The notes under the pieces are model-generated. The model was not told where the DNA came from. It searched no databases and saw only the letters and a program-made list of their open reading frames with translations. Of a stretch of 24,000 bases of DNA, positions 6,920 through 21,557 are shown one piece after another. The position numbers and the translations under genes were made by a program. Source of the stretch: Saccharothrix sp. (lineage in GTDB: Bacteria > Actinomycetota > Actinomycetes > Mycobacteriales > Pseudonocardiaceae); the NCBI RefSeq assembly GCF_031180885.1, contig NZ_JAPSLK010000027.1, positions 4,089 to 28,088 on the forward strand, given 5' to 3'. Positions within the stretch are counted from its first letter, which is position 1. The number at the start of each line of letters is the position of its first letter.

Positions 6920-7590
6920 GTGCGGCCTGAAAGTCGCTTGTAGCCAGTGAATTACCAGAGAGGACAAGGTGATTCCCCGCCCCGTGGTCAAGGTAGGGCG
7001 GGTCTCCTAGGGCGAATGCGGGACTGGTAACGGACCCGTGTTAAGCCGCCTGACACGAAGCCCCAAGAGCTGGTGGACCATCACCGGCCACAGGGCAAGG
7101 AGAAGATCTGAAGGACGAACGCAAGTGAACCCTCGATGAGGCCTCGTGAAAGTTGACCCGCGCCAATGGTTTGTAGTCGGCGGGAAGGGCCCGGAGCTGT
7201 GAGGCTCAGGTGGCAACGGAGGGCGATTTTCCTTCGTTGCGTGACCACCACCGGTCCCGGGGTAAAGAGGGCGTCCTCCCAGATCGCAACTGGCACAAGC
7301 GGAACAGGACAACCCTGTAGAGGTCCAGGACGGATGCGCCCTGGTAAGCCGACGGCAACGGAAGCCGAAACCCTCTGCGGGCGAAGGAAGACCCGAGAAG
7401 CGAATGCCGCTGGGGCGAAAGCCCAGGGGAAAACGCGGACCAAGGCACCTCAGCCTCCGCGCATAACCCGGCGGATACCGGGACTGTGTTCCCGGGCCCG
7501 AAAGGGAGCCCACGCGGGTCTGGTGGGCCTGTGAAGAACCGAAGCAAGAAGCCGGAACCAGCGCCGGAGTTGGATACCGAAGGAGGAGAA

Positions 7591-9375
7591 GTGGCACACC
7601 AAGTCGACACGACCCAGGAGTCCCCGATCCTTCCCGAGGGGAACCAAGCGCTGGACGACGCACGGTACTGGCACAGCATCGACTGGGCCACCACCGAGCG
7701 GACCGTACGGCGACTGCGGCAGAGGATCTTCACGGCGTCGCAAGAAGGGGACCTGAAGAAGGTCCGTAATCTCCAAAAGCTCATGCTGCGCTCGCACTCC
7801 AACACGCTCGTGAGCGTGCGGAGCGTGACACAGCGGAGCCTGGGACGCCGCACCCCTGGGGTAGACGGGGAAATCGTGCTGCGGCCAGAGGACCGGGGAC
7901 GGCTGGTGAGGACACTCACCGAGAAGCCCCGGCCCACGGCCCGGCCGGTGCGGCGTGTGCACATCCCGAAGGCGAACGGGAAGACCCGTCCGCTCGGTAT
8001 CCCGGTCATCCGGGACCGAGTGCAGCAGACCAGGGTGAAGAACGCCCTGGAACCTGAGTGGGAGGCACGGTTCGAGGCACGGAGCTACGGCTTCCGGCCC
8101 GGACGCAGCTGTCATGACGCGATCGCCGCGATCTTCAATTTCGCGGCAGGTAAGAAGTCCCGGCGACGCTGGGCTCTGGACGCGGACCTGACAGCCGCCT
8201 TTGACCGGATCAACCACGATCGTCTGATGGAGGCCATCGGGGGATTCCCGGCTGCGGCCGAGATCCTGCGCTGGCTCAAGGCCGGTGTGATGGAAGACGG
8301 GCGGTTCGCCCCGACCGAAGAGGGAGCCCCTCAAGGCGGAGTGATCAGCCCACTGCTCTTGAACATCGTCCTCCACGGCATGGGGACCGCTGCCGGGGAC
8401 CGTGAAGACGGCACCGCCCGGCAACGCTGGGTGCAGTGCGCCCCGGCGTTCATCCGCTACGCCGACGACTTCGTGGTGCTGTGCACCACCAAGGAAGAGG
8501 CCGAGCAGGCGAAGCAACGGCTTGCGGCCTGGCTGGAACCGAAGGGGCTGACCTTCAACGAGGACAAGACGCGCATCGTCCACCTCGACGACGGTTTCGA
8601 CTTCCTCGGGTTCAACGTCAGGCGCTACAACGACAAGCTGCTGATCAAGCCGAGCGATGCAGCGGTGAAGAAGGTCAAGGACAAGGTCCGGGACACTGCG
8701 AAACGGATGCGCGCGGCCACGTGCGCAGACGTCATCCGCACCCTGAACCCCTTGATCAAGGGATGGTCGACCTACTACAGGGGCGTGGCCTCCGCGGAGA
8801 CCTTCACGACCCTGGACCACTACGTGCACTACCGCATGTACAGGTGGGCCAAACGCAAGCACCACAACAAGTCGGTGGCATGGATTCGCGCCAGCTACTT
8901 CGGGTGCTTCAACCCGACACGGCAAGACGTCTGGGTCTTCGGAGACAAGGACACCGGGCGGTACCTGTACCGGTTCGCATGGACCCACATCGAGCGACAC
9001 GCCCTGGTCACCGGGCGGGCGTCGAAAGACGACCCAGCGCTTGAGGGGTACTGGAAGGCACGCATCCGGAAGCGCAAGCATCCAGAGGCTGACAAGCGCA
9101 ACCTGTCGCTGGCTGCCAAGCAGAAGGGGCTGTGCCCACTGTGCGGACTGGACCTGATCGCCGGAGCCGGCTACGAGCCCCAGTCCGTCCGTGAATGGGC
9201 GGCCTGGTTCTGGGCCAACTCCCGCACGATCAACAGGCACCACCTGGTCTTCAAATCCCAAGGCGGCTCGGACGATCGCGCCAACCTCATGCTCATCCAC
9301 TCGGAATGCCACCGGCAGTACCACGCCCGGAGCATTCTCGAAGGAACCCAGGAGATCCCGAATGCGCGTCCATAG
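7591..9375 (+). CDS. Group II intron-encoded protein: reverse transcriptase / maturase / HNH endonuclease
   Basis: RT motifs RPLGIPVIRDRVQQ, SYGFRPGRSCHDA, GAPQGGVISPLLLNI and YADDFVVL. Maturase-like X region (LNPLIKGWSTYYRG). C-terminal HNH (CPLCG...HHLVFKSQGGSDDRANLMLIHSECHRQYH). I prefer the GTG at 7591, preceded by AGGAGGAG at 7581-7588. The ORF track starts this frame at 7486. Confidence 0.9.
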   Translation: MAHQVDTTQESPILPEGNQALDDARYWHSIDWATTERTVRRLRQRIFTASQEGDLKKVRNLQKLMLRSHSNTLVSVRSVTQRSLGRRTPGVDGEIVLRPEDRGRLVRTLTEKPRPTARPVRRVHIPKANGKTRPLGIPVIRDRVQQTRVKNALEPEWEARFEARSYGFRPGRSCHDAIAAIFNFAAGKKSRRRWALDADLTAAFDRINHDRLMEAIGGFPAAAEILRWLKAGVMEDGRFAPTEEGAPQGGVISPLLLNIVLHGMGTAAGDREDGTARQRWVQCAPAFIRYADDFVVLCTTKEEAEQAKQRLAAWLEPKGLTFNEDKTRIVHLDDGFDFLGFNVRRYNDKLLIKPSDAAVKKVKDKVRDTAKRMRAATCADVIRTLNPLIKGWSTYYRGVASAETFTTLDHYVHYRMYRWAKRKHHNKSVAWIRASYFGCFNPTRQDVWVFGDKDTGRYLYRFAWTHIERHALVTGRASKDDPALEGYWKARIRKRKHPEADKRNLSLAAKQKGLCPLCGLDLIAGAGYEPQSVREWAAWFWANSRTINRHHLVFKSQGGSDDRANLMLIHSECHRQYHARSILEGTQEIPNARP

Positions 9376-9385
9376 TGGCCTGCTT

Positions 9386-9461
9386 GAGCCGGATGCGGTG
9401 AAAGCCGCACGTCCGGTTCTGAGGGGGCTCTCGACCCGAGAGGGTCGTGGAGCTACCCGAC
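9386..9461 (+). ncRNA. Group II intron domains V and VI (catalytic hairpin and branch-point helix)
   Basis: GAGCCGGAUGCGGUGAAAGCCGCACGUCCGGUUC is a 34-nt domain V with the AGC triad, a GAAA loop and a 2-nt bulge. Domain VI pairs CGACCC with GGGUCG around a GAGA loop and has an unpaired A at 9455. Confidence 0.85.
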
Positions 9462-10921: not shown

Positions 10922-11928
10922 GCCCGGTGTTCACCAAACTCGCCATCGGCGGCACCGCAACCCTGCTGCTCATCCCCGTCGTCCTCGGCCTGGCCACCAC
11001 CGCCGTCGTCGACTCCCTCTTCCGCCGCACCCCCACCGGCACCATCGACTGCACCACCCCGATCGCCGACATCCCACCCCACTACTGCCTGCTCTACGTC
11101 ACCGCCGCCCCGCACTGCCCCGGCCTCGACTGGACCGTCCTCGCCGCCATCGGCAAGATCGAAACCGACCACGGCCGCCTCAACGCACCCGGCGTCCACG
11201 AAGGCGAAAACCACGCCGGAGCCGCCGGCCCCATGCAGTTCCTCGCCCTCACCTTCAACGCCGTCACCGCCGCCCACCAGATCCCACCCGGCGGCGCCAC
11301 CCCACCCTCCCGCTACAACCCGCACGACGCCATCCACGCCGCCGCCTTCCTCCTGTGCGACGAAGGCGTACGAGAAGGCGACCTCCACAAAGCGATCTAC
11401 GCCTACAACCACGCCGACTGGTACGTCACCAAGGTCATCGACCAAGCACACGCCTACGCCCAAGCCGCCGCAGCCCACACCGGCACCGGCGACTGCAACA
11501 ACATCCACGCCCCGAACACCATCGCCCACACCGCCATCAACTACGCCTGCGGCATGCGCGGACTCCCCTACGTCTGGGGCGGCAACGGCCCCGACGGCGG
11601 CCACACCGGCTTCGACTGCTCAGGCCTCACCAAAGCCGCCTACGCCGCCGCCGGCCTCACCCTCCCCCGCACCGCCCAAACCCAACACGACGCAGGCCCC
11701 CACGTCCCCGCCGGACAACCCCTCCTCCCCGGAGACCTCGTCTTCTACGGCACCCCAGGCAACATCCACCACGTCGGCCTCTACATCGGCAACGGCCTCA
11801 TGATCGACGCCCCCGACTTCGGCCAAGTCGTCAAAATCGAGCCCTACCGCTACGCAGGTGACGACTACGCCGGCGCCACCCGTCCGGCAGGCGCCGGTGT
11901 AGCGGCCGCGGGTTACGGCTGGACCTGA
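10918..11928 (+). CDS. Secreted/membrane-anchored bifunctional cell-wall hydrolase (lytic transglycosylase-like + NlpC/P60)
   Basis: GTG start overlaps the upstream stop (GTGA). N-terminal TM segment (LAIGGTATLLLIPVVLGLATTAVV). SLT-like region (LDWTVLAAIGKIETDHGR...GPMQF). NlpC/P60 region (YVWGGNGPDGGHTGFDCSGLTKAAY...GDLVFYG...HHVGLYIGNGLMIDAP). Confidence 0.85.
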   Translation: MSPVFTKLAIGGTATLLLIPVVLGLATTAVVDSLFRRTPTGTIDCTTPIADIPPHYCLLYVTAAPHCPGLDWTVLAAIGKIETDHGRLNAPGVHEGENHAGAAGPMQFLALTFNAVTAAHQIPPGGATPPSRYNPHDAIHAAAFLLCDEGVREGDLHKAIYAYNHADWYVTKVIDQAHAYAQAAAAHTGTGDCNNIHAPNTIAHTAINYACGMRGLPYVWGGNGPDGGHTGFDCSGLTKAAYAAAGLTLPRTAQTQHDAGPHVPAGQPLLPGDLVFYGTPGNIHHVGLYIGNGLMIDAPDFGQVVKIEPYRYAGDDYAGATRPAGAGVAAAGYGWT

Positions 11929-12108
11929 TCATTCAACGTTGTGCCACGTGGCGTTTCCATGCTTGCCTATGGTTCGGCGATCTCGACGCACCGTAGGCCG
12001 AGCAGTTCGCACAGCACGGATATCGCCCTCTCGGCCTGACCTGAGCGTCTCGAGTGCTGGATATTGAATCCCAACCTATTCGTAGCTCGTTGCGGGACGC
12101 GGTCAGCT

Positions 12109-13038
12109 TCAGCTTCCAGAACGGGGCACTCGAACGCGTCGTTTAGCAGTCGAGTAGTCACCTGCAAGTTGTCCGCAATTTAGGTTGTCATTGGCCAACG
12201 AATAGAAGTGGTAGGCATCAAAACCCATCCGTCTCGCAACACCTGCCAGGCGTTCAACTGTCGCGATATCGGGTGTGGCGAGCTTGTTGCGAACGCTAGC
12301 AGCGGTCTCGTTCATTCTCGACACTCGAACGACGCACTTGCCTGCCAGTCCTTCAAACAGCTTTAACGCCGCGACAAAGGTTTCGTCGCTGCTATTGAAG
12401 TCGCGGATCACCACATAGTTGAGCCTAAAGGTGAGATTCGTGGTCGTCAGCATAGCTGAAGCAATATCTTCAACGCGATACCCGGCAGGCTTCCCCATCC
12501 GCATAATTGAGTGAACTTTGCTGGAATTTGCATGAAGGAGGCTTACCTGAACGTACTTCAGCTCGACTTCCTCCGCCAAGGACTCCATGTGGGCAAATAG
12601 GTCCGGACGGAGACCCACGGTGGTTAGGTTGAAATAGCACTGTGGGAAGTCGATAGAGATTGCCTTCGCTGATCTTTCAACGGTCGCTCGCATCAGCGAA
12701 GCCTCACCGATGCCGGAGTATGTAAAAAGGAATCGCGAACTCCGAGGCAAGGATTGGTCCTCTGTCACGAATTTGGCGATATCATGCACCTCCGTGTGCG
12801 CCAAAGCTTCATGGGTACCGAGTTCGGTAGCCGCGCAGTGGTGGCACCCCACAGCACATCCGTAGCTCGTGGGAAGCTCTACCACATCTTTAACATAAGT
12901 GTCGTCTAGGAAGTGTCGAAAGTGCGAAGCCTCGACGATCTTGCCGCCGACGTCGACGACATACCGTGTAGCTTCTTCGCGATTCCAACCTCGTGTAGAG
13001 TAGTTCGTTGTCGCCTTCATTCTTTGCACGATCTCCAT
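12109..13038 (-). CDS. Radical-SAM enzyme, minimal RlmN/Cfr-like (no N-terminal accessory domain)
   Basis: 309 aa with CX3CX2C at C61/C65/C68 (SYGCAVGCHHCAA; nt 12835-12858). The C-terminal NCGQLAGDYSTAKRR resembles E. coli RlmN ...AACGQLAGDVIDRTKR, recalled from memory. Colinear blocks: VDVGGKIVEA~AVGDQRVET, NLTTVGL~TLSTSGV, VSLLHANS~ISLHAPN, RLNYVVIRDFNSSDE~TIEYVMLDHVNDGTE. GCGAGG lies ~8 nt before the ATG. Low-GC codon usage. Confidence 0.8.
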   Translation of the reverse strand: MEIVQRMKATTNYSTRGWNREEATRYVVDVGGKIVEASHFRHFLDDTYVKDVVELPTSYGCAVGCHHCAATELGTHEALAHTEVHDIAKFVTEDQSLPRSSRFLFTYSGIGEASLMRATVERSAKAISIDFPQCYFNLTTVGLRPDLFAHMESLAEEVELKYVQVSLLHANSSKVHSIMRMGKPAGYRVEDIASAMLTTTNLTFRLNYVVIRDFNSSDETFVAALKLFEGLAGKCVVRVSRMNETAASVRNKLATPDIATVERLAGVARRMGFDAYHFYSLANDNLNCGQLAGDYSTAKRRVRVPRSGS

Positions 13039-13052
13039 GGGGGCCTCGCTAG

Positions 13053-13823
13053 TCAGAATTGCTTGGATTTTCCTCGCAGGGACGTAATATCGGTGACAAC
13101 ACTTCGTGCAAATGGCGAGTTGTGATCGAATGAAAGATGTACGACATCCTTGCTATCTTCGACGTGAAGATATGGGGTAAAGTCCAGTCCAGCGTCTGTA
13201 ATAATCGCCATATAGTAGGGCTCGACATCCTCTGGTAGATATCGAAGATCAATCCGACTGCGGACGCGAGATGGAAGTGAATCGCGAAACGCGACTAAGG
13301 CTTGGGCTGTTCGTTTTGTTTTCGAAGCATGATCGCGGCCGCACATTTCCTGGATACGCCTCTGAGCGGTACCGTTGGGGGCTAGCAGCAGGAAGCAGAC
13401 GTCCCCTCCGTTGCGGGCAACACGTCCAATTGCAGACTTAAAAAGCGCTTGGTACTCTGGCTTTAACCAGCTTTGTAGGCTGTGTCCCATAATTATTAAC
13501 CGGCCATTGGTGCCCTGCATTAGGCGATTCCAGTAATCAGGCTTGTCGGAATACTTTCCGTCGACTCGAAGTGCGCCTGTACGTGCCCTGATGTCAGCGA
13601 GGGCTTCAAGCTCTAAAAGCCGATCAATGATCTCTCTTTGAGCGCCAAACTCGCGACTGTTCAATGCGACCCAGATTAGCGACGCCATTAAGCTTGATAT
13701 CGCGCCACTCGCCAGAAGGAACCCAAGCGATGATCGAGATGTGGCGAGTCCGTAGCCGAGGAGTATGAGGCAAGCAACAACGAATGCTACGTAGACCAGT
13801 CGTCTATTCACCCACCACCACAT
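13053..13823 (-). CDS. Membrane protein: two N-terminal TM helices + ~190-aa cytoplasmic alpha/beta domain of unknown function
   Basis: 256 aa. TM1 is LVYVAFVVACLILLGYGLA and TM2 is LGFLLASGAISSLMASLIWVAL, followed by a helical linker (REIIDRLLELEALADIRA). The soluble domain alternates hydrophobic strands (RLIIMGHSL, DVCFLLLAPN, YYMAIITDAGLDFTPYL). Ends 14 nt upstream of the radical-SAM gene, with the same low GC. Confidence 0.7.
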   Translation of the reverse strand: MWWWVNRRLVYVAFVVACLILLGYGLATSRSSLGFLLASGAISSLMASLIWVALNSREFGAQREIIDRLLELEALADIRARTGALRVDGKYSDKPDYWNRLMQGTNGRLIIMGHSLQSWLKPEYQALFKSAIGRVARNGGDVCFLLLAPNGTAQRRIQEMCGRDHASKTKRTAQALVAFRDSLPSRVRSRIDLRYLPEDVEPYYMAIITDAGLDFTPYLHVEDSKDVVHLSFDHNSPFARSVVTDITSLRGKSKQF

Positions 13824-14183
13824 TTACTGTCGCTGTGATGTTGCCCACAGGGTGAGTCTACACTATCCTGTGATCACTTTCTAGTGAAACATCGAATCAT
13901 CTGTATTTCGTTGCATGCACCCGCCACTGAAGTGCGCCAGAGATACAATTATCTGCATTGAGTTTAGCGGCATGGGTGGCACGATTGTCCCCTGCTGTTA
14001 CGTGCAAAGCTGCTGTGTCGAGTCGGTCAATATGGACACGTATGCGGCGAGTACTCAAGCATTCCTGAAAGTGCTCAAGTTCGAGTGGAAGCTACATGTA
14101 GCTGTCGCTTCCTCGCCGATGTGAGCACTTCCGTGTGGACATGAGGCATTGTTCGCGCGTCGAAGCCGTTCCGGTCCGTGCGT

Positions 14184-14935
14184 TCAGGCTGCCGGACGCT
14201 GGCTGGCGAGTATCGCAAGGCTGAGGAGCACCGTTGCGCCGATCACCGCGACCACGGCCAGCCCGGCGGTGAAGCCGTGCCCGCGCTGGACGAAGGTGCC
14301 GGTGCTGCCGAGCACCACCACGCCGAGTGCCAGCCCGAACTCCACGCTGGTCTCGGACAACGCCGATGCCGCACCGGCCCGGTCTGGTGGCGCCGCGCTG
14401 ACCACGCTGTCCATGCTCAGCGCCATCACCGGCCCCAGGCCGAGGTAGATCAGCACGAGTCCGGCGACCAGCGGCGCGACCCCTGGTCGTCCGGGGTCCG
14501 GGCCAGCACGGCGAAGCCGACTGCGGACACCGCCAGTGACCACACCAGCAGGCGGTGGACCGGGATCCGGCGGGCCAGTGCGGGTGCCGCCATTGAGGTC
14601 AGGACCATCGCCACGGCGGAAGGCGCCACCCACAACCCGGCCCTGATGGGGGACAGCCCCGCCTGCTGCTGGAGGTAGAGCGCGGCGAACAGGTAGACCC
14701 CGGCGACGCAGGCGAGCGCGGCGAGCAGGACCAGCAGCGCGTCGCGGAACGGCCGCGCGGCGAACAGTCGGAGGTCGAGCAGCGGCAGGCTCAGCCGCCG
14801 CTGCCGGCGCAGGAACACGACCCCGGCGCCGCGCTGGCGCGGATCGCGGAACATGCTGCCGATCAGCGCGAGTGTGGACGGCATGAGCGTGGTGCCGGTG
14901 ATGCCGAGCAGCCCACGGGCGCTGGCGCAGGCCGA
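14184..14935 (-). pseudogene. MFS (DHA2/EmrB-QacA-like) transporter remnant: 5'-truncated, internally deleted and frameshifted
   Basis: MFS-like peptide is split over two frames. One frame reads ...ARGLLGITGTTLMPSTLALIGSMFRDPRQRGAG | LPLLDLRLFAARPF...GLSPIRAGLWVAPSAVAMVLTSMAAPALARR...AVGFAVLARTPDDQG. The other reads VAPLVAGLVLIYLGLGPVMALSMDSVVSAAPPDRAGAASALSETSVEFGLALGVVVLGS...*. The shift maps to the CCCC run at 14480-14483. No N-terminal TM1-3 coding is present. Confidence 0.7.
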
Positions 14936-15226
14936 TGCCGCCGCGATTGACGACATCGTCCGGTTGGAAGGGCACCACACCGAGCCGTCCACGCACCGGT
15001 GTTCGCCGGGCAAGGCACGGCTGGCGGAAGAATTACCAGTCAATGGTTTGTGTCGCGTGAGCGTCCACAAGAGACGATCCGGCGATCTGTTGAGGGCCGA
15101 CTTGACTTCACACCCGCAAGGAAGCGTTCATAGTCCTGCGGGCTGATTCGACACCGGGTGCGCGCCGGGCCCGTAGCTCCGGCCGGGGCATGACCATTCG
15201 CGGTATCACGACGAAGCGAGGCAGTC

Positions 15227-15842: not shown

Positions 15843-18065
15843 TCAACCGGACTGTGTACCCGATCGCTCGCCGATCGGGTCGCGGTCCGGTTGTTGTTCT
15901 GTGTCCGTGGGGGCGGTGGCGGCGTTGGCGAAGATCATCAGTTTCAGGCTGGGATGGGTGCGCTGGGTTTCGGGATGGTCGTCGCCGAGAAGGCGTTCGC
16001 GGATGGCCAGGACTTCGCGGAGTTCGGCTTCGGCGGCGGCGAAGTGGCCGCGTCTGCCCAGGACGACGGCGCGGGCGTGACGGACGTCGAGGGTGTAGCG
16101 GTGTTCGGGACCGAAGGTTCTCGTGTACGCGGTGACCAGGCTGTCGTAGTCGGCCGAGGCGGCCTCCAGGTCGCCTTGGTCGTCCAGGTACCCGGCGATC
16201 TGGTAGTGGGCGAACAGCACGGCGGAGTGGTCCGGCCCGAGCGCCTGGCGTTGCAGGCGCAGCACTTCACGTGCCTCGGCTTCGCCGTCGCCTCCGTCCT
16301 GGGTCATGCGCAACCACGCGAGCATCTGCCGGACGTCGAGGGTGTCCGGGTCCTCGGCGCCCATGACGCGTGTGCGGACCTTGAGCAGGTCGAGCAGTTC
16401 CTCTTCGGCGAGGTGGGTGTCCCGCTCGGCCAAGGCGAGTGCGAGCGTGTAGCGGCAGCTGAGCGTGTCGGGGTGTTCAGGGCCGAACGTGCGCTCGAAG
16501 TCCTCCACCAGCGCGCGGTACTCCTGCTCGGCGGCGAAGTGGTCACCGCGCTTGTACAGGATCGTCGCCAGGGCCATGCGGATGTTCAGCGTCTCCACGT
16601 GCTCGGCGCCGAGTACGTCCAGGCGTGAGGCCAACACTTTCCGGTACAGCGCCTCGGACTCCACGTCCAGGCCGACGTGGTAGCAGAACATCGCGGCGGC
16701 CCACGAAATTGCGTCCGGTGTGCCCTCCGGCATGCAGTGCGGCAGCATCGCCCGCCACATCGGCCATACCTGAGGGTCGCTCGGGTCGTGCGTGGAGGTG
16801 CCACGTTCGAGTAGACGCCAGCGGACCTCGTCCTGCGAGGTGGTGTCGCCGTGGTGGAGGTTGGCCTCACGCACCAGCGGGTGCAGGACGACGACGTCCA
16901 CCGGGTCGCCGGAGCGGTACTCGATCAGGCCGAATCCGCGCAGGTCCTCCAAGAGCGTGGCCAGGTGGTGAGCGGTGAGACCGGCGAAGAGGTCGGAATC
17001 GGCGAGGATCCGGGCGTCGAGCAGCGCGGTCGGGATGGGCATCTGCTCGAAGGTGGACAGCAGCCGCAGCAGCGGGCGGGTGAGCGGCGCTCCCCGTTCG
17101 GCGAGCAGGTCCAGACTCAGTTCCCACGTGCGGGACAGCAGCTCACGTTCGCTCTGGGCCGTGGTGCCGGCGAGATCCAGGCCGTCGGCGAGAGCGACCT
17201 CGTACTCGGCGAACGACCGGGGCGTTGCGGCGCCCGGGACCGTCATCATCGTGCTGGTGGACTTCAGGTAGGTGCCTGCCAGCCTCAGCGCCAGCGGCAG
17301 TCCGCCTAGCCGCGTCGCCAGCTCGCGCGCCTCGGCGAGGGTGCCTGCGTCGGGGGCCAGGTCCAACAGCACGGCGGCGGCGTCCTCGACGTCGAGCACG
17401 CCCACCGGTACCAGGCGGTACCGGCCCCAGGTGGAGGAGCGGCTGTCCCTGCTGGTCACGATCACGGTCCCGCTGGTCGGCGGCCGGCGCAGCCAGCCAC
17501 GGCCCGCGGTCAGCCGACCTTCGGGGGCGAGCAGTCGCGGGTCGTCGGCATTGTCGAGCACCAGCAGCCACGCAGCCGGGTAACCGGCCAGCCCGGACCA
17601 CAGCAGGTCGGTGGCCGAGGCGTCGCCCGACCACGCTGCGCGCACTTCATCCGGTAACGCGCCCGTGCGCAGCGCGACCTCGCGCAGGCCTTCAGTGACA
17701 CTGGCCGCGCTCGTGGCGTCGACCCACCACACGTGATGGGAGTGGGCGACCAGCTTTGCCAGTTCGGCCGCGACGGTGGTCTTGCCGTAGCCCCCGTTGC
17801 CGTGCAGCACCACGACCTGACCGCCTTGTCGTACCGTGGCAACGAGTTCTCCCAGCAGCTCGCCGCGCCCGCGGACGGTGTGGGTGACGTCCTCGGGGAC
17901 CGCCAGCGAGGCAAGTCCGGGGCCGCGGGCTGCGCTGTCGCTGCCCAGGTAGAGGTCGCGGCCTGCCTGGTTGAGCATCGCCCGGTCGAGAGCTACGCCG
18001 AACTGGCCTAAGTCGGTCATCCGCCGAAGGCTACTGCGCGCCGGGGCACAGGGTGCGGCGGTCAC
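15843..18065 (-). CDS. STAND NTPase: NB-ARC domain + C-terminal TPR array, no recognisable effector domain
   Basis: Walker A VVLHGNGGYGKTT, Walker B WLLVLDNADD, VIVTSRD, and the GLPL motif RLGGLPLALRLAG. At least 5 TPR_10/12-type repeats follow (FGPEHPDTL, MGAEDPDTL, LGPDHSAVL, FGPEHRYTL, LGDDHPETQ). Start is GTG at 18065 or ATG at 18020 (MTDLGQFG...); neither has a strong RBS. Confidence 0.85.
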   Translation of the reverse strand: MTAAPCAPARSSLRRMTDLGQFGVALDRAMLNQAGRDLYLGSDSAARGPGLASLAVPEDVTHTVRGRGELLGELVATVRQGGQVVVLHGNGGYGKTTVAAELAKLVAHSHHVWWVDATSAASVTEGLREVALRTGALPDEVRAAWSGDASATDLLWSGLAGYPAAWLLVLDNADDPRLLAPEGRLTAGRGWLRRPPTSGTVIVTSRDSRSSTWGRYRLVPVGVLDVEDAAAVLLDLAPDAGTLAEARELATRLGGLPLALRLAGTYLKSTSTMMTVPGAATPRSFAEYEVALADGLDLAGTTAQSERELLSRTWELSLDLLAERGAPLTRPLLRLLSTFEQMPIPTALLDARILADSDLFAGLTAHHLATLLEDLRGFGLIEYRSGDPVDVVVLHPLVREANLHHGDTTSQDEVRWRLLERGTSTHDPSDPQVWPMWRAMLPHCMPEGTPDAISWAAAMFCYHVGLDVESEALYRKVLASRLDVLGAEHVETLNIRMALATILYKRGDHFAAEQEYRALVEDFERTFGPEHPDTLSCRYTLALALAERDTHLAEEELLDLLKVRTRVMGAEDPDTLDVRQMLAWLRMTQDGGDGEAEAREVLRLQRQALGPDHSAVLFAHYQIAGYLDDQGDLEAASADYDSLVTAYTRTFGPEHRYTLDVRHARAVVLGRRGHFAAAEAELREVLAIRERLLGDDHPETQRTHPSLKLMIFANAATAPTDTEQQPDRDPIGERSGTQSG

Positions 18066-18092
18066 ACGAAGGACCCGAAGCCGTGTTCAGGC

Positions 18093-19190
18093 TCACCGAT
18101 TGCGCGTGTTGCTGGCATGAGGCGTCTTTGCCACGGTCCCTGGGTTTCCGGCTGTCACCACGCTGAGTGCCTGGTACAGCTCGTGGAGGTCCTTCTGCGC
18201 TCCCTTGCGGCCCCGTCGGTGTTCCGGGCGGCGCACGTCGGGGAACTCGGCGCGCAGGTCGTCGAGCACCGCTCGGACCACCCGGGCGCCGCTGGCGTGG
18301 AAGAAGGCCCGCATCGCGGCGCGTTCCTTCTCCGGCATCAGGTCCGGGATCACCGGGACAGCGTCCGGCTCGTCCAAGGCCAGTTCGAGGCGGTTCTTCT
18401 CCAGACCGGGGATCGGGCGGCGGAGCACGCCGTAGTTGGGGTTGTCGAACCTCCGCCGCTGCCGGTCGATGAACGCCCTGACCGTGCGCGCCTGGTCATC
18501 GGTCGCGACGCCCCACTGCTTGAGCACCGTCCAGGCCGTGGTGTTGTCGCCGCTGGTGTCGCGGCCGTGTTCCTCTTCCAGCAGCTTCCGCAGTTGGTTC
18601 AACGTCCTCGTGCGTGCGGGGCCGATCGAGCCGACCGGCATGTTCAACGATTGCGCGACGTCGGCGTAGCTGGTCCCGGAGCTGGTCAGCAGCCTCAGCA
18701 GCTCCTGTCCTCGCTCGGGCAGTCGGGCGAATGCTCGCCACAGGGCGGCGTGGTCCTCGTCCTGCACAAGGCCTGTTTCGGGGCTTTCGACGACGTGGGT
18801 GCCGGCGGCCGTCTGCTCGGTGACCAAGGACGAGGCCACTCTGTCCAGCGCGACCTGTGAGGACCGCAGGCGCTGCGCAATGCGACGCGCGGTGACGACC
18901 AGCCAGCCCGCCAACGACTTCGGCTCCTGGATGCGCTGCATGTGGTCGAGCAGGGCCAGCCAGGTGCTTTGCACGACGTCCTCGGCCTCGGGCTGGGTGC
19001 ACCCGGCGGCGCGGGCGACGTGCCAGATCAGCGGGGTCAGTTCGGCTACGAGTGCGTCGAGCGCGGCCCGGTCGCCGTTCTTGGCGTCGGCGAGCAGTTG
19101 CGCGTGGCGAGCGTGTCGGTCGGTGTTGGGCACGCCGGTGTCCCGGTCCCGAACGTTCGGGACCGGGACACCGGCGGCCGTCGAGCCCAT
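18093..19190 (-). CDS. ECF-type sigma-70 family factor with ~160-aa C-terminal extension of unknown function
   Basis: Region 2: ALDALVAELTPLIWHVARAAGCTQPEAEDVVQSTWLALLDH...AGWLVVTARRIA. Region 4: LPERGQELLRLLTSSGTSYADVAQSLNMPVGSIGPARTRTLNQLRKLL. About 160 further residues have no motif I recognise. The ATG lies 1 nt after the upstream TGA, indicating translational coupling. Confidence 0.8.
   Translation of the reverse strand: MGSTAAGVPVPNVRDRDTGVPNTDRHARHAQLLADAKNGDRAALDALVAELTPLIWHVARAAGCTQPEAEDVVQSTWLALLDHMQRIQEPKSLAGWLVVTARRIAQRLRSSQVALDRVASSLVTEQTAAGTHVVESPETGLVQDEDHAALWRAFARLPERGQELLRLLTSSGTSYADVAQSLNMPVGSIGPARTRTLNQLRKLLEEEHGRDTSGDNTTAWTVLKQWGVATDDQARTVRAFIDRQRRRFDNPNYGVLRRPIPGLEKNRLELALDEPDAVPVIPDLMPEKERAAMRAFFHASGARVVRAVLDDLRAEFPDVRRPEHRRGRKGAQKDLHELYQALSVVTAGNPGTVAKTPHASNTRNR
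19133..19176. repeat. 44-bp perfect palindrome (22+22) inside the 5' end of the sigma gene
   Basis: cgccggtgtcccggtcccgaac|gttcgggaccgggacaccggcg. I checked base by base that the second half is the reverse complement of the first. It covers codons ~5-19 (AGVPVPNVRDRDTGV), and both strands encode VPVPNVRDRDTG. Confidence 0.95.
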
Positions 19191-20278: not shown

Positions 20279-21457
20279 TCATCCGAGCCAGCCGTGGCGT
20301 CGAAGCGTCGGAGCGCGGTTGGCACAGTGTGGCGAGCAGTAGCGCCGCCTCATTCGGTGTGCCGCGTCGTCGAGGCCGGTGCCGCATACCGGGCAGCAGC
20401 CGCGGGCGATGCGCGTGGCCAGTTCTGCGAGGAGGTGGTCGACGATGATGCGTTGTTCCGGCGTCGGGACCGAGTCGGCCGGGCAGGCGGGGTGGCTCAG
20501 CAAGCTGGCGAACACCGTGCGGAAGTCGCTCAGGTCTCGGCGGCGGGCGCCGAGCAGGTGCAGGTAGTCCTCGACGGGCCAGCTGACCAGAGCACCGGCG
20601 CGGGTGAGGTACACACCCACCGCGTCGATCTCGTAGTGGTCTCCGTAGTCCATCAGGGCGTAGCCGAGCAGTTGCTGCATGGTGAGTTGCGGGAAGTCGT
20701 GGATGCGGCGGGTGCTCTTGAAGTCCAGGAGCAGGCCGTCGACGATCAGGTCGGCGTCCGCGGTGACGTGGTGGCTTCCGTCGAAGGTCGGTCCTGGGTG
20801 GCAGCGATTCGGCGTCGAGGCAGAGCGCAGTGCGGCGAGTGGGCCGTGCTGGGCGAGGTCGAGTTGCGCCAGGACGTCGTCGACGAGGTCGTGGTGTGGG
20901 ATGGCGAGCATCCGCGGCAAGGTGAACCCGCCGGGGTCGGCGATGACGGCCTTGAACAGCGGTGTCTCGGGAAACGCGATCGGTACTCGGTACCGCAGCG
21001 CGTACCAGGCGGCGACCAACAGCATCCGCGCCAGGCGTTCTTCGTCCTCGTCGACACGGGTGAGGGGCCGGCTGCGGTCGTCGAGCGCCAGGTCGGCGAC
21101 GAGTGCGGTGATCGCGGCGATCAGCTCGCGACCGAGAGCGGCCAGCACCGTGTTCACGTGCGCGCGGTGTCCGTAGAGGTCCGGCTCGGACGCGTACTCG
21201 TCACTCAGCAGGACGCCGGCTCGGGTGGCCAGGTCGACCGGGTCGGCGGTGGTGAACGCCAGGCGCAATCGTTGATCGACCGCCGTTCCGACGGTTCCGG
21301 CCTCGTTTCCGACGCCCTCGCCCGGCAGCACCAGGTGCGGGGTCGCCAGCCGAGCACGGTAGTTCGCGCGCAACGGCCGCGTGCCGGCGGACAACTCACG
21401 ATCCAGGAACCGCCGGAGGGGAGTCTGCGGCGATCCCAGTCCCGACGTGAGACTCAT
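20279..21457 (-). CDS. PD-(D/E)xK (RecB/Cas4-like) nuclease-family protein with C-terminal zinc ribbon
   Basis: Motifs in canonical order: ...TADADLIVDGLLLDFKSTR (D ... D-x-K), then QQLLGYALMDY (QxxxY). C-terminal CCPVCG...YCSPHCANRA. I prefer the ATG at 21457 (MSLTSGLG...); the track's GTG at 21511 is an alternative. Confidence 0.7.
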   Translation of the reverse strand: MSLTSGLGSPQTPLRRFLDRELSAGTRPLRANYRARLATPHLVLPGEGVGNEAGTVGTAVDQRLRLAFTTADPVDLATRAGVLLSDEYASEPDLYGHRAHVNTVLAALGRELIAAITALVADLALDDRSRPLTRVDEDEERLARMLLVAAWYALRYRVPIAFPETPLFKAVIADPGGFTLPRMLAIPHHDLVDDVLAQLDLAQHGPLAALRSASTPNRCHPGPTFDGSHHVTADADLIVDGLLLDFKSTRRIHDFPQLTMQQLLGYALMDYGDHYEIDAVGVYLTRAGALVSWPVEDYLHLLGARRRDLSDFRTVFASLLSHPACPADSVPTPEQRIIVDHLLAELATRIARGCCPVCGTGLDDAAHRMRRRYCSPHCANRAPTLRRHGWLG

Positions 21458-21557
21458 GGGCGGACGGTATCGAGCACCACCGACAAAAAGTCGTCTGTGC
21501 CGGTCGACCACCCCGTCGTGGTCACACGTCCGGTGGAACGCCGTTCTCGCCGGGTGG

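Follow-up and report, generated by a model that had tools for sequence, protein, structure and literature searches.

The effectors of Pycsar and CBASS join a killing module, formed by transmembrane (TM) segments, a TIR domain or a PNP domain, to a small ligand-binding domain, and they are encoded beside the enzyme. Metis responds to a methylated adenine mononucleotide, for which its TM pore or NADase effector has a pocket; its sensors are MisA (a PUA domain with a metallophosphatase) or MisC (a three-TM protein), the HAD phosphatase MisB is an accessory, and its signal, N6-methyl-dAMP, stems from ordinary Dam-type methylases, with a dedicated methylase in the predicted type III (bioRxiv 10.1101/2025.11.05.686725). 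In Vesta (VstA/VstB), DUF4062 forms part of the effector VstA, whose C-terminal ligand-binding domain is uncharacterised (bioRxiv 10.64898/2026.09.04.749371), and DUF4062 is a TIR-like NADase of several defence systems (bioRxiv 10.64898/2026.09.04.749371; 10.64898/2026.05.01.722283). Here we describe a two-gene cassette of Saccharothrix sp. that pairs a radical S-adenosylmethionine (SAM) enzyme with a membrane protein. It lies in a stretch of 24,000 nucleotides (nt) of assembly GCF_031180885.1 (contig NZ_JAPSLK010000027.1, positions 4,089 to 28,088, forward strand), hereafter the window, whose numbering we use unless another locus is named. A conflict or defence role for this cassette is probable, because gene pairing, fusions, domain identities, the swapping of effector modules, and mobile and defence contexts all point that way. 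We advance tentatively, as slightly short of an even chance, the reading that it is a horizontally acquired two-component conflict system, likeliest an anti-phage, abortive-infection one, in which an enzyme-derived ligand would act on a sensor-effector.

The cassette comprises two open reading frames (ORFs) and the spacer between them:

12109..13038, minus strand: radical-SAM gene, 309 amino acids (aa), an ORF encoding a divergent class-A (RlmN/Cfr-type) methylase-like protein.

13039..13052, minus strand: intergenic spacer of 14 nt, ctagcgaggccccc, read directly; it holds GCGAGG, which resembles a ribosome-binding site.

13053..13823, minus strand: partner gene, 256 aa, an ORF encoding a membrane hairpin and a DUF5919-like domain of phospholipase D (PLD) fold.

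An earlier note on this DNA had described two minus-strand genes 14 nt apart, with GCGAGG before the second, and had taken them for a minimal RlmN/Cfr-like radical-SAM enzyme and a protein with two TM segments. Both ORFs and the spacer are as described, the enzyme has the expected cysteine motif and the RlmN fold and is missing the N-terminal domain, and the partner bears two hydrophobic segments that form a helical hairpin in its model.

Related loci were gathered by identity look-ups, a genome scan and a metagenome scan, and were counted as 14: the window, Lentzea (L001/L007), L002, L009, L003/L004/L011, L005/L006/L017, L012/L016, L008 (a Bacillota metagenome-assembled genome, MAG), L010, L013, L014, L015, L018 and L020. 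In hidden Markov model (HMM) searches, the gene for the C-terminal domain of the partner, which we call domain X, lies directly upstream of the enzyme gene and on the same strand, or is fused to it, in every one of these 14 loci, at enzyme identities to the window of 29-77% and in hosts comprising Actinomycetota, the single Bacillota MAG and metagenomes. A word-index homologue search for the partner gave just 2-4 proteins, and an exhaustive profile search was required: HMMER with the X-domain profile against 1.84 billion representatives gave 238 proteins at E<=1e-3, of which 152 were examined. Thirteen of the 152, making up at least 13 fusion clusters, are single polypeptides in which X is followed by an RlmN-like enzyme; 11 retain N-terminal TM segments, two appear N-terminally truncated, and the active-site glutamate E54 and the CGQL cysteine described below are present in all 12 fusion proteins that were aligned. 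Between Saccharothrix and Lentzea alba, DNA homology (blastn, 73% identity) is confined to window 12170-13839 against L007 9200-10869; the flanks are unrelated, and the Lentzea copy is likewise low in GC (0.51-0.53). The nonsynonymous and synonymous divergence of the two genes (dN 0.10 and 0.155, dS saturated) indicates strong purifying selection. Because gene order is the same in 14/14 loci and at least 13 fusions exist, partner and enzyme form an obligate unit whose pairing is not due to chance.

Some family members vary this layout. At L015 (1622-3375), on a contig of ~4x coverage, the partner gene is frameshifted in a poly-A run and its C-terminal part reads without a stop into the enzyme, so that the locus probably encodes a fusion of hairpin, X and radical-SAM enzyme; an XRE-type helix-turn-helix (HTH) gene lies upstream, and a 592-aa HD-domain protein is encoded two genes downstream. 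L012 (106-1681) and L016 (706-2281) hold 99% near-identical copies of the L005-type cassette in which homology begins inside the partner gene, the hairpin (residues 1-77) having been lost or replaced, with no obvious start codon; the variant, decaying or TM-less, still has its enzyme gene intact. One distant hairpin-X protein, P0053, is preceded by the gene of an Exo_endo_phos (EEP) enzyme, and the hairpin-X module may pair with other enzymes too.

The partner divides into two predicted modules, the first of which public annotation has partly hidden:

13578..13823, minus strand: two-helix TM hairpin with a stalk helix, residues 1-82, the predicted effector module (hydropathy and AlphaFold2, AF2).

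13056..13577, minus strand: alpha/beta PLD-fold domain X, residues 83-256, the predicted ligand sensor (Foldseek).

13665-13823, minus strand, and Lentzea L001 7216-7350: hairpin region left out of public annotation (codon comparison).

Hydropathy places the membrane segments at residues 5-23 and 36-54, and the AF2 model (pLDDT 90.3) folds helices 2-28 and 32-82 into a hairpin, followed by an alpha/beta domain at 84-252. The NCBI models of the partner, 203 aa in Saccharothrix and 211 aa in Lentzea, have their start within the second membrane helix or beyond it, which hides the two-TM module. Over the 60 upstream hairpin codons, comparison with Lentzea gives a dN of 0.034 against a dS of 3.2; since these codons are under purifying selection, the 256-aa form of the partner is real. 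The partner has no match in Pfam (E<=1), NCBIfam or PADLOC, SLATT families included. Foldseek places domain X closest to the effector-binding domain of TrmBL2/TrmB (6.6e-7), followed by the pseudo-PLD FAM83 DUF1669, the phosphatidylserine synthase PssA and PLDs, and viral structures return generic PLD matches alone. The catalytic HKD motif (HxK(x)4D) is not present in domain X, and its lone candidate histidine, H114, is an arginine in the 82%-identical Lentzea protein and an asparagine or tyrosine in other relatives; domain X is therefore best read as non-catalytic. Across 35 sequences, W98 is its sole invariant residue. The window partner itself has no match to Pfam DUF5919 (PF19319) at E<=1, whereas its relatives P0028 (26.7 bits) and P0172 (25.2 bits) exceed the gathering score of 23.5 and are tied to it through our A4 profile (E 1.9e-43 and 3.7e-6). 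These profile links identify domain X as a putative relative of DUF5919, and the structural matches relate it to the ligand-binding domain of TrmB.

Across the family, domain X stays constant while the module at its N-terminus varies between TM, TIR, DUF4062 and PNP-type forms. Among the 152 X proteins examined, ~113 are unfused and carry N-terminal TM segments (exactly two in 97 of them), and 12 have a soluble module at this place. The soluble N-terminal domains include DUF4062 in four proteins (P0027, P0141, P0156 and P0170) and TIR_2 in P0167. In P0039, the N-terminal domain is a TIR of the CAP12/Pycsar kind (Pfam 9e-32; PADLOC CBASS 'Effector TIR' 4e-52; PycTIR 7e-39); that of P0024 matches the CBASS TIR effector (1.9e-11), and that of P0028 matches the CBASS PN-superfamily (PNP-type) effector (3.9e-7). 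Each of P0039, P0028 and P0024 is followed by an RlmN-like enzyme gene. Plasmid DUF4062 proteins were checked for domain X as well, and none carries it.

The enzyme retains the catalytic elements of RlmN and Cfr with one substitution, as seen in an alignment of 32 split and fused family members:

12835..12858, minus strand: C61-x3-C65-x2-C68, the radical-SAM [4Fe-4S] motif, invariant in 32/32.

12877..12879, minus strand: E54, a glutamate aligned with the resolving cysteine of RlmN, Cys118; invariant in 32/32.

12166..12180, minus strand: N287-C288-G-Q-L291, by alignment the equivalent of the RlmN C355 / Cfr C338 'CGQL' loop.

Pfam recognises only Radical_SAM in the enzyme (30.4 bits), and the NCBIfam models TIGR00048, NF000424 and TIGR04432 score 30.2, 23.6 and 20.7 bits against cut-offs of 290, 530 and 550. 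Overall, its scores against RlmN and Cfr families are 20-31 bits versus cut-offs of 290-601, so far below them that the enzyme is neither a housekeeping RlmN nor a Cfr. The kinship shows in profile and fold: a profile of 20 members finds RlmN 6fz6 (E 2e-17), Cfr 9p0p (2e-13) and E. coli RlmN (1e-11) in the PDB, the ten best Foldseek matches of the AF2 model (pLDDT 91.6) are all RlmN (TM-score 0.68-0.74), and the model superposes on RlmN 3rfa/5hr6 at 0.73-0.74. The next match after RlmN and Cfr, by both sequence and structure, is the pyruvate formate-lyase (PFL)-activating enzyme. At ~17-21% identity to RlmN/Cfr, the enzyme is a divergent and very rare relative, distant from the housekeeping RlmN and Cfr families; its closest matches are 100% identical in Saccharothrix sp. 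and 77% in Lentzea.

Cys355 of RlmN and Cys338 of Cfr are the methyl-carrying cysteines (PMC12887959), and within the corresponding CGQL loop of the window family C288, G, Q and L are invariant in 32/32. Apart from C288 and the cluster cysteines, family members share no conserved cysteine, and none stands in for RlmN C118. The placement of E54 there follows from an ungapped HMM alignment ('ElptsfGC' against 'CVSCQVGC' of 6fz6). Invariant E54 may act as a general base in place of the cysteine, or may leave a stalled covalent adduct. The N-terminal accessory (RNA-binding) domain of RlmN, ~60-80 residues, is absent, NCBIfam alignments beginning at RlmN position 74-82; residues 1-54 form four beta strands in the AF2 model, and the family-specific N-terminal residues Y13, W18, E21, E36 and H42 are invariant.

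Six loci carry a P-loop nucleotide kinase gene that overlaps the enzyme gene or comes right after it. These kinases belong to two families, one Tmk-like with thymidylate kinases as best PDB matches (L003, L013, L014 and L020) and one small and YorR-like (L002 and L009; 2axp at 7.6e-7); L003 additionally encodes a hydrolase of the metallo-beta-lactamase (MBL) fold. The 628-aa protein P0172 (L025 372-2258) consists of a TM segment, X (DUF5919) and a viperin-like radical-SAM/SPASM domain (PADLOC pVip 2e-12), and domain X has therefore been combined with a second, unrelated radical-SAM enzyme. The recurrence of kinases of two families, together with this viperin swap, points to a chemistry of nucleotides rather than of RNA polymers.

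Around the relatives, defence and mobility genes are frequent neighbours. The Lentzea copy is flanked by DpdD (PADLOC 9e-210), an AAA_15/OLD-TOPRIM protein and a large DEAD helicase, and L002 by GmrSD_N, DUF3800 and an Mrr_cat/nSTAND3 protein matching PDC-S73 at 2e-132. Other neighbours are ParE (L003), Polbeta/HepT (L005), NADAR (L010) and an HD-domain protein (L015), and fused genes adjoin a serine recombinase and a type IV secretion system (T4SS) coupling protein (L023) or an integrase (L024). At L008 (5326-8433), the cassette comes after genes for an APH-like kinase, an IF-2B protein (MtnA-like isomerase) and a class II aldolase; this three-gene set resembles methylthioribose/5-deoxyribose salvage, which handles radical-SAM by-products, and its position could be a coincidence.

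In the window, the cassette is cargo of a conjugative element resembling integrative and conjugative elements (ICE-like), and it is foreign and horizontally acquired. Two further features frame it:

12000..14130, strand-less: low-GC island with the cassette, GC 0.49-0.56 by composition profile.

13824..14130, minus strand: low-GC non-coding leader of ~300 nt, 5' of the cassette, the presumed promoter region (inferred).

GC is 0.49-0.56 across ~12000-14100 versus 0.66-0.74 on either side, and GC at third codon positions is 0.51 and 0.59 in the cassette genes versus 0.8-0.9 in host genes. The leader is without a convincing ORF, and promoter and Rfam searches of it gave no match. An imperfect 28-nt inverted repeat at 14069-14130 sits just inside the island border; apart from this hairpin, we found no convincing direct or inverted repeats, tRNA genes, promoters or terminators bounding the island. 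The genes on its left belong to conjugation: PrgI, a VirB4/TraG-like ATPase and Replic_Relax are encoded there, as is a bifunctional hydrolase (SLT+NlpC/P60) that terminates at 11928 and is similar to hydrolases of actinomycete plasmids. To its right, a major facilitator superfamily (MFS) gene is broken over two overlapping frames at 14184-15070 on the minus strand (14450-15070 and 14184-14996), and this remnant reaches the island border.

The window holds other genes of note. A complete group II intron lies within the transfer region on the plus strand (6980-9461), with Rfam matches to group-II-D1D4-7 at 6980-7070 and to Intron_gpII (domains V/VI) at 9384-9461 and, between them, an ORF (7486-9375) encoding RVT_N, RVT_1, GIIM and HNH. 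On the minus strand, 15843-19190 encodes a 740-aa STAND-type NTPase with TPR repeats (AAA_16, NB-ARC, TPR_10/12) directly downstream of a 365-aa sigma-70 family protein; neither matches PADLOC, and the NTPase could have a regulatory role instead of being Avs-like. Further along the same strand (20279-21511), a 410-aa protein has a weak PADLOC match (1.9e-5) to the reverse transcriptase (RT)-associated PD-(D/E)xK protein of DRT systems, and its Rad50 zinc-hook match falls below threshold.

Much of what the earlier note had proposed about this locus has held. The stretch it saw as AT-rich between flanks of ~70% GC does stand out in composition, and its position between a transfer module and a decayed MFS gene is borne out by PrgI, the VirB4/TraG-like and Replic_Relax genes on one side and the split MFS gene on the other. 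It had suggested checking whether the genes co-occur, and the membrane/X gene precedes the enzyme gene at all 14 loci; it had raised the question of whether the enzyme falls inside the housekeeping RlmN clade, from which ~30 bits against cut-offs of 290-550 separate it. The likeness it drew to the enzyme-plus-effector layout of CBASS and Pycsar gains from orthologous loci in which TIR, TIR_2, DUF4062 or PNP replaces the two-TM module, and the mobile cargo or defence setting it envisaged agrees with the DpdD, OLD-family, GmrSD, nSTAND/PDC-S73, toxin-antitoxin, integrase and T4SS genes found nearby. Its statement that no described system has this build also stands, in that we found neither a PADLOC model nor a description in the literature.

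How might such a pair work? RlmN and Cfr modify C2/C8 of adenine, and the window enzyme is likewise predicted to attach a methyl (methylene) group to an sp2 carbon of a purine; the likeliest ligand would be a C-methylated adenine nucleotide. Non-catalytic domain X would bind this enzyme-derived ligand, and binding would make the two-helix hairpin assemble into oligomers that damage the membrane; the TIR, DUF4062 or PNP module of relatives would deplete NAD+ or nucleotides instead. The ligand could arise by two routes. In route A, the enzyme would make a messenger from a free nucleotide upon sensing infection, as in CBASS and Pycsar, with kinases supplying the substrate as they do beside pVips. 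In route B, the enzyme would mark host nucleic acid constitutively and degradation by the phage would free the modified mononucleotide, as in Metis, while basal signal would be removed by the kinase or MBL hydrolase where present, much as by the dispensable MisB and VstB phosphatases. A freely diffusing messenger would be harder to square with the frequent fusions of enzyme and effector than route B or a sensor acting in cis. In its most specific form, the proposal is one of a new immune signalling chemistry, in which a class-A enzyme would make a C-methylated adenine nucleotide (for example 2-/8-methyl-AMP or -ATP) as the alarm ligand of a PLD-fold (DUF5919) receptor wired to pore-forming, TIR, NADase or PNP effectors, with the invariant glutamate marking a changed catalytic cycle; this version we hold to be doubtful.

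Several observations weigh against reading the cassette as a ligand-based conflict system. Systems with a diffusible messenger do not usually have the enzyme that makes the signal fused to its own sensor-effector, and to our knowledge the characterised class-A radical-SAM methylases all act on RNA, not on free nucleotides. The replacement of the resolving cysteine by E54 may alter the chemistry altogether. No homology between the two-TM hairpin and the SLATT effectors or the TM effectors of Pycsar could be detected, neither window protein matches any PADLOC model, and the distant hairpin-X proteins P0050 and P0053 (L021 821-1624; L022 62-1723) have no radical-SAM neighbour. The kinase is missing from the window, Lentzea, the L005 clade, L008 and L015, or about half of the loci in a survey in which two contigs end too early to score, and tblastn for a kinase remnant in the window and Lentzea found none. 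The surroundings of L008 and the efflux genes beside L005 are of a housekeeping or efflux kind and not obviously defensive. Finally, the enzyme family is extremely rare, comprising 21 clusters in 5.8 billion proteins and occurring in 2 of 185,579 species genomes, and the plasmid, phage and viral-contig collections contain no copy of the cassette.

The enzyme could instead act on RNA (or DNA) as an effector or covalent sensor, possibly stalling as an adduct through its glutamate in place of Cys118, with X and the N-terminal module transmitting or executing the response or tethering the enzyme. Every solved relative is an RNA methylase, and a fusion of enzyme, X and effector suits a cis-acting sensor over a diffusible messenger. 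Moreover, the C118A mutation traps RlmN cross-linked to tRNA, as it was crystallised (PDB 5hr6 and 5hr7 titles), and E54 is invariant at that very position, although a glutamate could merely serve as a general base instead of the cysteine. We think this account unlikely, given that the RNA-binding domain of RlmN is missing and that the two unrelated kinase families beside the enzyme and the X protein fused to a viperin-like enzyme suggest free nucleotides; the neutral to acidic isoelectric points (5.2-8.8) also speak against it, as weak evidence that is uninformative as a proxy for RNA binding. The partner might alternatively be the protein substrate of the enzyme, a residue of X such as W98 being methylated or cross-linked to arm a membrane toxin. 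Strict adjacency and frequent fusions would follow naturally, the PFL-activating enzyme, the next-best match after RlmN and Cfr, does act on a protein, and W98 is the only X residue invariant over the 35 sequences. We judge it improbable, as it would leave the kinase association unaccounted for and sits poorly with the retained RlmN-specific CGQL methyl-carrier loop, with X domains that exist without any radical-SAM enzyme and with the lack of a glycyl-radical or RiPP-like (ribosomally synthesised and post-translationally modified peptide) motif.

Other explanations do without an immune signal. The cassette might serve addiction, toxin control or another kind of selfish stabilisation with no phage role, or the pair might modify membrane lipids through a PLD-like enzyme and a methylase, which taken together we regard as quite unlikely. 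Cargo positions on ICE-like elements and integrase and toxin-antitoxin neighbours fit the former, although stabilisation of the toxin-antitoxin kind and defence are compatible with each other; two TM helices with a PLD fold recall cardiolipin and phosphatidylserine synthases, but the HKD motif and a conserved histidine are missing and soluble TIR, DUF4062 and PNP replacements speak against lipid chemistry. The absence of HKD and the replaceability of the TM module by soluble domains led us to reject a catalytic PLD or lipid enzyme. The earlier note had also offered a Cfr-like ribosomal RNA (rRNA) methylase with a membrane accessory, here taken to confer resistance to phenicol, lincosamide, oxazolidinone, pleuromutilin and streptogramin A (PhLOPSA-type) antibiotics or self-resistance. 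RlmN and Cfr are indeed the nearest named families, and the cassette rides on a conjugative element of an actinomycete, but this alternative has fared badly and we consider it highly improbable: its scores of 20-31 bits fall far short of 290-601, an N-terminal RNA-binding domain and a Cys118 equivalent are lacking, the TIR, NADase or PNP domains of orthologous partners would be out of place in a resistance determinant, and the surroundings contain no biosynthetic cluster. On scores, absent domains and the architecture of the partner, we rejected both Cfr-type resistance and housekeeping RlmN.

The logic of an enzyme with a sensor-effector is already known; what is new is the class of enzyme, the receptor fold and the exchange of glutamate for cysteine in the active site. 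In the literature searched, we found no paper that mentions DUF5919 or links RlmN-type enzymes with anti-phage function. If the conflict-system reading is true, radical C-methylation by an RlmN/Cfr-type enzyme would be a new chemistry for bacterial immune signalling, a non-catalytic PLD/DUF5919 domain would be a new receptor fold, and the enzyme would be the first class-A radical-SAM methylase to act beyond rRNA and tRNA modification. It would further provide a natural variant without the resolving cysteine, bearing on the debated mechanism of RlmN and Cfr, and would mean that the cargo of actinomycete conjugative elements includes compact defence systems overlooked by current defence-finder models (PADLOC). 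DUF5919 gains a testable function and, if the reading is true, a ligand class, including the DUF5919 domains of actinomycete regulators. A practical caution is that such genes should not be annotated as 'RlmN' or suspected of Cfr-like resistance.

Compared with known systems, the cassette combines familiar parts in an unfamiliar way. The window enzyme has the radical-SAM core fold in common with RlmN and Cfr, along with two motifs (CX3CX2C and the GIGE SAM motif) and a C-terminal CGQL loop that bears the methyl-carrier cysteine; its scores amount to roughly a tenth of the cut-offs of those families. The N-terminal domain of RlmN is replaced in it by a family-specific beta-sheet extension (with invariant Y13, W18 and E21), its family has an invariant glutamate for Cys118 and invariably comes with an effector protein, encoded beside it or fused to it, and, whereas RlmN is a housekeeping enzyme, the window family is rare and horizontally transferred. 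The viperin-like pVips also bring a radical-SAM enzyme into immunity, often adjoining nucleotide kinases, and the X protein P0172 is itself fused to a viperin-like enzyme. They belong to another radical-SAM family, however, and need no separate effector, their product itself being antiviral; PADLOC pVip models match neither the window enzyme nor P0014.

The putative effector of the cassette is laid out like those of Pycsar and CBASS, and the N-terminal domains of P0039, P0024 and P0028 match effector models of those systems, which the two-TM module of the window protein does not. The sensor differs, being PLD-fold and DUF5919-like rather than cNMP-binding (cyclic nucleotide monophosphate-binding), SAVED or STING, as does the frequent fusion of enzyme and effector. 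No CD-NTase (SMODS) is matched by PADLOC or Pfam in the window proteins and none was seen in related loci, nor does the window cassette or any related locus contain the cyclase domain of a Pycsar cyclase (PycC). Metis, compared here by its description, is similar in that MisC also joins a killing module to a ligand-binding part and in having an optional nucleotide-metabolising accessory gene, and differs in its PUA-like or unrelated three-TM sensors and in an accessory that is a phosphatase, not a kinase; Pfam finds no PUA, calcineurin-like or HAD domain in the window cassette. Like the Vesta effector, P0027, P0141, P0156 and P0170 join a DUF4062 NADase domain to a further domain, here X. At the level of the fold, the closest parallels are TrmB and FAM83 DUF1669, which likewise have a PLD-like alpha/beta fold without the catalytic HKD and which, in TrmB, serves as a ligand-binding domain. 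DUF5919 is otherwise attached to HTH DNA-binding domains, whereas domain X is joined to membrane or immune effector modules.

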